35,426 bases of DNA from a virus (IMGVR_UViG_2609460354_000004:1-35426); one strand, 5' to 3'; positions 21,853 through 21,927 are shown, counted from the stretch's first letter. Made by a program: numbers and translations. Notes: generated by a model not told the origin, from the sequence alone.

Positions 21853-21927
21853 ATGAAAATGCAAAAACCAGCCTTTTTCCGCGACGCTCCCGCCCCGTGG
21901 CAGGTCACTACACCGGGAGGACCCATA
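21853..21927 (-). other. cos-like conserved element, copy B (orphan, no adjacent terS)
   Basis: Same ~75-nt motif as copies A and C (..AGCCTTTTTCCGCGACGCTCCCGCCCCGTGGCAGG..CCGGGAGGACCC..). Lies between the SSB terminator and an AT-rich region upstream of capsid2. Confidence 0.45.

Follow-up and report, generated by a model that had tools for sequence, protein, structure and literature searches.

In a viral DNA of 35,426 nucleotides (IMGVR_UViG_2609460354_000004:1-35426; this whole stretch is hereafter designated the window), an 80-nt repeat occurs in three copies, which are identified from their sequences as cohesive-end (cos) sites of the lambda type, one (cos3) belonging to a lambdoid prophage and two (cos1 and cos2) to a phage-inducible chromosomal island (PICI) embedded in the prophage gene for the large terminase (TerL). 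The reading that we consider probable is that one TerL nuclease would act on all three sites, with the cosB segment of each site and the small terminase (TerS) deciding where packaging starts, cos1 being the island's own site and cos2 a site for a helper of the type of phage cdtI. This reading builds on the observed anatomy, homologies and insertion and on the observation that the N-terminal half of TerS varies together with cosB, and from these we infer which sites are cut and by which helper.

The three copies of the repeat and their likeness to lambda cos

The repeat forms one family of three copies, at 19317-19396 (cos1), 21853-21932 (cos2) and 30472-30551 (cos3), all on the minus strand and 88–91% identical to the reference copy; a preliminary description of this DNA had recorded them as a motif of ~75 nt, with coordinates right to within 1–6 nt. 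Read on the minus strand, every copy consists of the cosQ heptamer GGGTCCT, a 22-nt spacer, the cosN element GGGCGGGAGCGT with T or G as the last base (written GGGCGGGAGCG(T/G) for the copies together), and a shared stretch of 31 nt, CGCGGAAAAAGGCT(A/G)GTTTTTG(C/A)A(T/A)TTTCAT. cosQ and cosN are located at 19382-19388 and 19348-19359 in cos1, where the 12th base of cosN is G and not T, at 21918-21924 and 21884-21895 in cos2, and at 30537-30543 and 30503-30514 in cos3, in which an I2-like stretch extends down to 30472. The spacers (by copy, GTGGGGTGGT, GTGTAGTGAC and GCAGTGTGTC) vary in their central ~10 nt, and the segment of ~12 nt that had been noticed to differ between conserved flanks is indeed this spacer between cosQ and cosN. 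When a 55-nt pattern running from cosQ to the shared stretch after cosN was searched for with its 9 variable positions left free, only these three minus-strand sites were found in the window, with 0 mismatches, and 100 dinucleotide-preserving shuffles gave 0 matches. The homology of all three sites stops 31 nt past cosN, beyond which they belong to distinct flank classes; the flanks and terS genes of cos1 and cos3 are related to each other (74% identical over 670 nt), and the flank of cos2 is different.

The likeness of the minus-strand core to the lambda cohesive ends, stated in the preliminary description, holds in an actual alignment, in which the lambda cos was obtained by joining the end and the start of NC_001416 and phage cdtI was included as well. 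All three copies align with the lambda cos column by column: the cosQ heptamer is the same, the distance from cosQ to the nick is 22 nt in the copies and 23 nt in lambda, cosN matches the lambda GGGCGGCGACCT at 9 of 12 positions and is followed by CGCGG in both, and the nick-proximal ACG also lines up. A BLAST search with cos2 against 50,697 phage records gave 25 matches, in lambdoid coliphages except for one Klebsiella phage. Moreover, window base 21895, the first base of cosN (GGGCGGGAGCGT) of cos2 on the minus strand, is the first base of the records, as deposited, of phages cdtI (NC_009514/AB285204) and Tritos (OV696610).

The positions relative to terS agree with this identification. The first base of cosN lies 196 nt from the terS start codon at cos1 (ATG 19163) and 186 nt from it at cos3 (ATG 30328), in the range of 150–230 nt given earlier for these two copies, the corresponding distance being 190 nt for nu1 of lambda, which starts at 191, and 184 nt for terS of cdtI, which starts at 185, and in 45 phage loci the motif occurs once per locus, ~190 nt before terS. 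The cosB segments follow on the minus strand at 19164-19347 (cos1), 21692-21883 (cos2, B-type or cdtI-like) and 30329-30502 (cos3, A-type). The consensus for integration host factor (IHF), WATCAANNNNTTR, has three perfect matches in the whole window, two of which stand ~50 nt past the cosN of cos2 (21820-21832) and of cos3 (30441-30453), in like orientation and at the same position in both cosB segments; the cosB of cos2 also contains two TTTTCACCTG repeats. To our knowledge, TerS binding sites have not been defined for DUF1441 proteins, the family to which the small terminases of this locus belong. Collectively, the copies appear to have what characterizes a lambda-type cos, that is, the cosQ spacing, a cosN homologous to a known cohesive end, and a cosB that co-varies with the small terminase.

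That the repeat is no packaging signal at all, being instead a structured RNA, a terminator module or a generic dispersed repeat, is highly improbable and may be regarded as effectively refuted. A hairpin with a T-run immediately precedes each island copy, and a CTCCCG...CGGGAG complementarity spans the variable spacer, as such an element might be expected to display. Against these features stand the alignment with lambda cos and the ends of the phage records, the single motif before terS in each of the 45 phage loci, and the experimental demonstration that the homologous sites of the island EcCICFT073 are cos (PMC6092414). A scan of the whole window with Rfam at the gathering threshold detected only STnc100 and no RNA family at any copy, and a tRNA scan of the window found no tRNA; the interpretation of the repeats as RNA was dropped after these scans.

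cosB types, small terminases and helper lineages

The preliminary description had regarded cos2 as an orphan copy lacking terS. It has no terS, but it is not a bare motif, since a full phage-type cosB is attached to it: the segment 21692-21895, which matches cdtI nt 1-204 at 94.6% identity, spans the whole cosB and the first ~20 nt of terS. In this remnant of a cdtI-type terS, the start codon ATG is changed to GTG, and a terminator-like hairpin (21649-21665, minus strand) comes next and closes the cos2 cassette. The cos2-type cosB is nearly invariant over 215 nt among 18 distinct copies from phages (cdtI and HannyBb) and islands, and cdtI and HannyBb, which have this cosB in common, encode TerS proteins that are 100% identical. 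To all appearance, cos2 is a complete cos taken from a second, related helper-phage lineage of the cdtI type.

The sites cos1 and cos3 are each followed by a small terminase gene of the DUF1441 / PHROG 141 family, namely that of the island paralogue TerS' (18678-19163, minus strand) and that of the prophage TerS (29834-30328, minus strand). The cosB of cos1 is 95% identical to that of the phage locus L122, and the N-terminal half of TerS' is 100% identical to that of the L122 TerS; relative to the resident prophage, the same comparisons give 72% for cosB (cos1 against cos3) and 73% for the N-terminal half. Thus, cosB and the N-terminal half of TerS vary together, which would be expected of a half that reads cosB. 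The C-terminal half of TerS is identical among all A-type phages, while that of TerS' is only 52% identical and lacks the acidic tail. TerS' is evidently a chimera of a phage-type N-terminal half and an island-specific C-terminal half, the divergence of which might alter TerL binding or give rise to Rpp-like hetero-oligomers with the helper TerS. BLAST detected no similarity between the N-terminus of the cdtI TerS and TerS'.

The two helper lineages were compared further along the packaging and virion genes. Downstream of terL codon ~330, cdtI 1713-9000 and window 18023-10735 are 98.5% identical over 7.3 kb, whereas upstream of this codon cdtI and the prophage are only 71% identical, which indicates that the nuclease domain, cosN and the virion genes are common to both lineages, the difference lying in the module comprising cos, TerS and the N-terminal part of TerL. 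In one relative (L032), the island is inserted at the identical place in terL and has both of its cos sites, and nt 1-324 of L032 match cdtI 1399-1722 at 98.5%; an A-type upstream terL fragment stands beside the island in the window and in L021, L030 and L159. The island family is thus embedded in prophages of both lineages, so that the role of cos2 is most likely to let a cdtI-type helper package the island. The jump in terL identity between the A-type and the cdtI-type from ~70% to ~100% falls at window ~17900-18020, ~100 nt downstream of att. The idea that this mosaic breakpoint is the att site itself was rejected by comparing their positions in cdtI (~1810-1826 for the breakpoint and 1713-1722 for att). 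That embedded islands help helpers to swap modules of cos, TerS and the N-terminal part of TerL is suggested at most by the proximity of the breakpoint to att.

In lambda, initiation of packaging requires cosN and a TerS-bound cosB, and termination requires cosQ and cosN at the next site (PMC6739421). By analogy, one TerL nuclease domain would nick all three cosN elements, and TerS would select the packaging start. With an A-type helper, TerS' and the helper TerL would start at cos1 and the helper's own TerS would serve cos3; with a B-type (cdtI-type) helper, the helper's own TerS would start at cos2. Packaging would proceed toward lower coordinates, in which direction the distance is 8.3 kb from cos1 to cos2 and 2.5 kb from cos2 to cos1, within a unit of 10.8 kb. 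Cutting at the lambda termination site depends on how full the head is. Likewise, packaging could still terminate at the cosQ and cosN of a site not used for initiation, such a site presumably being passed over until the head is almost full.

Relatives of the island and rival accounts of cos2

For the comparison with relatives, ~35 distinct IMG/VR contigs with this packaging module were collected, ~30 of which were informative; a scan of genome contigs with the 95-residue protein encoded by the last island gene yielded a single Shigella locus, which was not used. About 20 of the ~30 informative relatives have cos2, the capsid gene and cos1, the capsid gene lying between the two island sites. 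This preservation bears on the possibility that cos2 is a leftover of late-gene capture, in which a segment from cos to the capsid gene entered by recombination at cos and later lost terS, terL and the portal gene, leaving cos2 with no selected role. The ~20 nt of cdtI-type terS with its GTG, followed by the hairpin and the capsid module, look like such a scar, cos-bracketed capsid cassettes recur with different capsid types (L048, L051, L061 and L073), cos2 is absent from some relatives, and large late-gene captures followed by gene loss have been proposed for helper-embedded PICIs (PMC10111431). However, cos2 and its cosB match cdtI at 94.6%, the adjacent capsid gene being only 64–71% identical, which does not fit a simple joint arrival and drift; a cosB nearly invariant over 215 nt in 18 copies is unusual for a non-functional scar, and cos2 is kept in about two thirds of the relatives. 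We therefore consider it rather unlikely that cos2 is nothing but such a leftover. A capture-scar origin and a role in helper range are in any case compatible and not mutually exclusive.

The capsid region itself is unstable, as is seen from natural derivatives. Two distinct relatives (L025, and L020, a contig also designated L110) have SSB, a single cos and TerS' but no capsid gene, and their single cos is a hybrid with the upstream flank and spacer of cos2 and the 12th cosN base and cosB of cos1. The concern raised in the preliminary description that two same-orientation sites in one small element would yield two packaging substrates is thereby given substance, these relatives missing exactly the DNA between the two island sites. 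In two others (L033 and L018), the capsid fusion gene is internally truncated.

These derivatives also enter into another account, according to which cos2 would be mainly a termination or cleavage site acting through cosQ and cosN, either setting the packaged unit or interfering with the helper by premature cutting of helper-plus-island concatemers. It is established that lambda termination uses cosQ and cosN without a matching cosB (PMC6739421); packaging started at cos1 and cut at cos2 would yield 8.3 kb of DNA from which the capsid gene alone is missing, exactly the structure of L020/L110 and L025, and, while the island is unexcised, three co-oriented cos sites lie within 11.2 kb of the prophage. 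The same deletion of the capsid gene is, however, produced by ordinary recombination between the 80-bp repeats, the conserved 190-nt, phage-identical cosB is not needed for termination, and cutting at 8.3 kb costs an island gene. The exchanges between the copies speak in the same direction. In ~9 relatives (L021, L022, L024, L026, L028, L029, L030, L032 and L092), cos1 has a cos2-type spacer and keeps its own outer flank, and the A/G polymorphism to the right of cosN is exchanged too, which indicates short-patch gene conversion between the copies; with both sides of cosN converted and the outer flanks fixed, general recombination is indicated, not hybrids made by terminase. On balance, termination as the main role of cos2 seems decidedly unlikely. 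We had considered hybrid cos as evidence that both sites are cut, and rejected this because, where cos1 has the cos2-type spacer, the flank upstream of cosQ stays of the cos1 type and the exchange also takes in polymorphisms to the right of cosN. The variable spacer is not a specificity determinant.

A wider set was made up of PICIs sharing the gene for the 95-residue protein, in which cos sites were found by an anchored search and cosB segments were clustered at 80% identity. Two or three cos sites per island are common in this set, arranged either as co-oriented pairs around capsid genes or with an inverted site after an rpp-like gene, as in CFT073. Among ~38 PICIs with two or three sites, no island has two sites of one cosB cluster. 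Six of the islands (L057, L064, L051, L061, L073 and L048) have three cos each, two co-oriented around capsid genes and one inverted before the last open reading frame (ORF), and all three cosB classes differ; one locus (L054) contains two PICIs in tandem. Tentatively, and with somewhat less confidence than in the reading of the present locus, we propose for enterobacterial PICIs a portfolio of cos sites, with cosQ and cosN shared and one cosB per helper lineage, by which an island would be packageable by helpers that swap their modules.

Several points weigh against the proposed use of the three sites and have to be set beside the evidence above. The starts of cdtI and Tritos are those of deposited records, not necessarily experimentally mapped ends, and cos1 has no perfect IHF consensus. 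That cos2 is used in this element is what we infer, and no cdtI-type TerS is encoded in the window, so that cos2 is without a cognate reader in the resident helper. In nature, cos2 is dispensable: ~7 relatives have cos1 only, in one of which another region replaces SSB and cos2, and L013 shows a clean loss of the cos2 cassette (window 21924-21655) between two similar hairpins, the one behind SSB and the one that closes the cassette. Deletion of the second cos of EcCICFT073 raised transfer, so that a second cos can be a cost (PMC6092414). Finally, islands could be free of duplicated cosB classes simply because long repeats are unstable.

The prophage, the island and known systems

The window evidently represents a lambdoid prophage of the A-type, with cos3, a DUF1441 TerS and a GpA-family TerL, whose terL is interrupted by a helper-embedded PICI of 10,828 bp. 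From high to low coordinates on the minus strand, the lysis genes are followed by cos3, in a lambda-like location between lysis genes and terS, then by terS, the N-terminal ATPase half of terL (GpA_ATPase, 28839-29834) and the island, after which come the C-terminal nuclease half of terL (GpA_nuclease, 16904-18016), the head-tail adaptor, the portal, the prophage's own protease-capsid fusion (13215-15434) and the tail genes. The break in terL lies at codon ~331, exactly at the GpA_ATPase/GpA_nuclease boundary. Comparison with an uninterrupted locus (L150) defined the size of the element and, at each junction, an att block of 13 bp, attL (CTGGATGTAGGGT, 28836-28848, minus strand) being the left end beside the integrase gene and attR (CTGGATGGAGGGT, 18008-18020, minus strand), which equals attB, the right end. 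At attL, an island-derived T creates the TAG stop that ends the ATPase half straight after ...SFWM; at attR, an in-frame ATG (MEGPAAAY...) is left at the start of the nuclease half. The embedding is apparent from the split terL, from the intact terL in L150 and ~35 other loci, and from the att blocks: in ~35 IMG/VR phage loci both terL halves are contiguous, with 97–100% amino-acid identity to the window fragments, and the N-terminal half is 99–100% identical to that of intact terL in IMG/VR phages. The idea that the prophage is a hybrid made by the island was rejected, many intact phages having the same N- and C-terminal terL halves in one piece. Elsewhere in the prophage, a gene for a protein of 230 residues (30900-31592, plus strand; PHROG 13652) occupies a moron-like position between the lysis genes and cos3, and the Rfam match to the STnc100 sRNA (35081-35271, minus strand; 114 bits, E = 2e-24) lies at the edge of the lysis region.

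Within the island, the order of genes from the integrase end is the tyrosine integrase (27439-28677, minus strand), an AlpA-like helix-turn-helix regulator or excisionase candidate (27223-27426, minus strand; so placed by the RefSeq annotation of a 99.8%-identical genome and by its position as in EcCICFT073), Bro/Ant, small ORFs including an Icd-like one, DUF4222, the primase/helicase (D5_N, DUF5906 and Pox_D5; 22917-24734, minus strand) and a field of iterons, followed by an ORF of 81 residues, SSB (21965-22387, minus strand), cos2, an ORF of 69 residues, the fusion of a ClpP-type prohead protease with the major capsid protein (19421-21334, minus strand), cos1, TerS' and the 95-residue ORF. 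The iteron field (22700-22920), directly downstream of the primase gene, consists of dense direct and inverted GGTGAACAGTT repeats and is a candidate for the replication origin of the island, PICI origins having been reported downstream of the primase gene (PMC6092414). The SSB gene is followed by a GC hairpin and T-run ending 2 nt before the cosQ of cos2. The island protease-capsid fusion gene is 64–71% identical in nucleotides to the prophage copy. The last gene (18394-18681, minus strand; PHROG 1561) is conserved, and its product is 72% identical to that of the last ORF of EcCICFT073. The remaining perfect match to the IHF consensus (18384-18396) stands at the 3' end of this gene, ~370 nt from attR, and could be part of the attP arm of the island. 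The element thus has the hallmarks of a PICI, namely an end with int and an alpA-like gene, a primase with an adjacent candidate origin, a length of 10,828 bp, unidirectional genes and an absence of genes for lysis and tails. The term capsid-forming PICI does not apply to it, since the island contains only the protease-capsid fusion and TerS', the terL and portal genes in the window being those of the prophage. Between clpS and cspD of strain M505 stands an island behind a different integrase, its packaging module being 99% identical and both cos copies unchanged. The genome of E. coli B1-56 (NZ_AP040249) matches the window at 99.8% identity over 13 kb.

As kinds of element, lambda-type cos sites, cos PICIs of Gram-negative bacteria and helper-embedded PICIs having two or more cos are already known; new details are the specific arrangement and an orphan site that matches a second helper lineage, and through them a testable answer suggests itself to a question still open among specialists. 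Genes for virulence, resistance and defence travel on PICIs, the spread of which is limited by which helpers package them. If each extra cos is indeed a key to another helper lineage, the helper range could be read, or predicted, from the cosB classes of an island. We know of no study of cos recognition by DUF1441-type terminases, and the present locus offers a natural system for it, with three cos sites, one shared cosN and three cosB types, together with two TerS DNA-binding variants and a TerS' with a private C-terminal half. The insertion in a GpA-family terL also adds to the late-gene targets of helper-embedded satellites.

As compared with lambda, the cosB segments are unrelated to the lambda R3/R2/R1 region, and lambda cosB clusters alone; the small terminase of lambda is Nu1, and here a DUF1441 / PHROG 141 protein takes its place. 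Sequence searches of PDB with TerS' and the 95-residue protein gave chance-level hits only, with no match to lambda TerS or Rpp.

The island is much like EcCICFT073, which has the same architecture and several homologous genes, the synteny covering int, the helix-turn-helix gene, YlcI, Icd-like, DUF4222, primase, SSB and capsid. EcCICFT073 likewise has two cos with conserved cosQ and cosN and two cosB types, one cos being directly upstream of a packaging-specificity gene. Both of its sites are functional, cosB decides which is used, and its cos1 is read by an Rpp-TerS heterocomplex (PMC6092414, PMC6739421); full-size heads take up this island as multimers, and it can do without its capsid gene (PMC6092414; PMC10111431). 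In our scan, the CFT073 sites were located in L009 at 15559 (+) and 16309 (-), on opposite strands and flanking rppA. Thus, the second cos of EcCICFT073 is inverted, between rppA and the last ORF, with no cos upstream of its capsid gene, whereas the island sites described here are co-oriented and bracket the capsid gene. No Rpp homologue follows cos1, BLASTP against the CFT073 RppA finding nothing; the gene in that place is a TerS paralogue. Moreover, the second cosB is near-identical here to that of a known phage lineage, in contrast to the cosB regions of EcCICFT073, which matched no helper, and the cosN class is GGGCGGGAGCGT, not the lambda GGGCGGCGACCT.

Helper-embedded PICIs in the late genes of prophages have already been described (PMC10111431). 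The island resembles these (11capE and its relatives) in its short att block, in having its own homologue of a helper late gene, and in a cos-containing stretch shared with the helper (PMC10111431). In the portions of that work available to us, the listed gene-A sites are in genes of the Terminase_1 family, whereas the insertion described here is in a GpA-family terL at the ATPase/nuclease junction, and those parts of its supplements that were consulted did not contain the present att core (PMC10111431). 11capE was described as being without terS, and multiple cos sites were not analysed there (PMC10111431). Among the Staphylococcus aureus pathogenicity islands (SaPIs), SaPIbov5 has the capsid homologue Ccm, SaPIbov4 has two putative cos and the pac-type islands have their own TerS, so that in these too a satellite cos, a capsid homologue and/or an own small terminase divert helper packaging (PMC6092414, PMC6893505). 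The sequences and hosts of SaPIs are unrelated to those considered here, where one cos satellite unites a TerS paralogue, a capsid/protease fusion and two cos sites.
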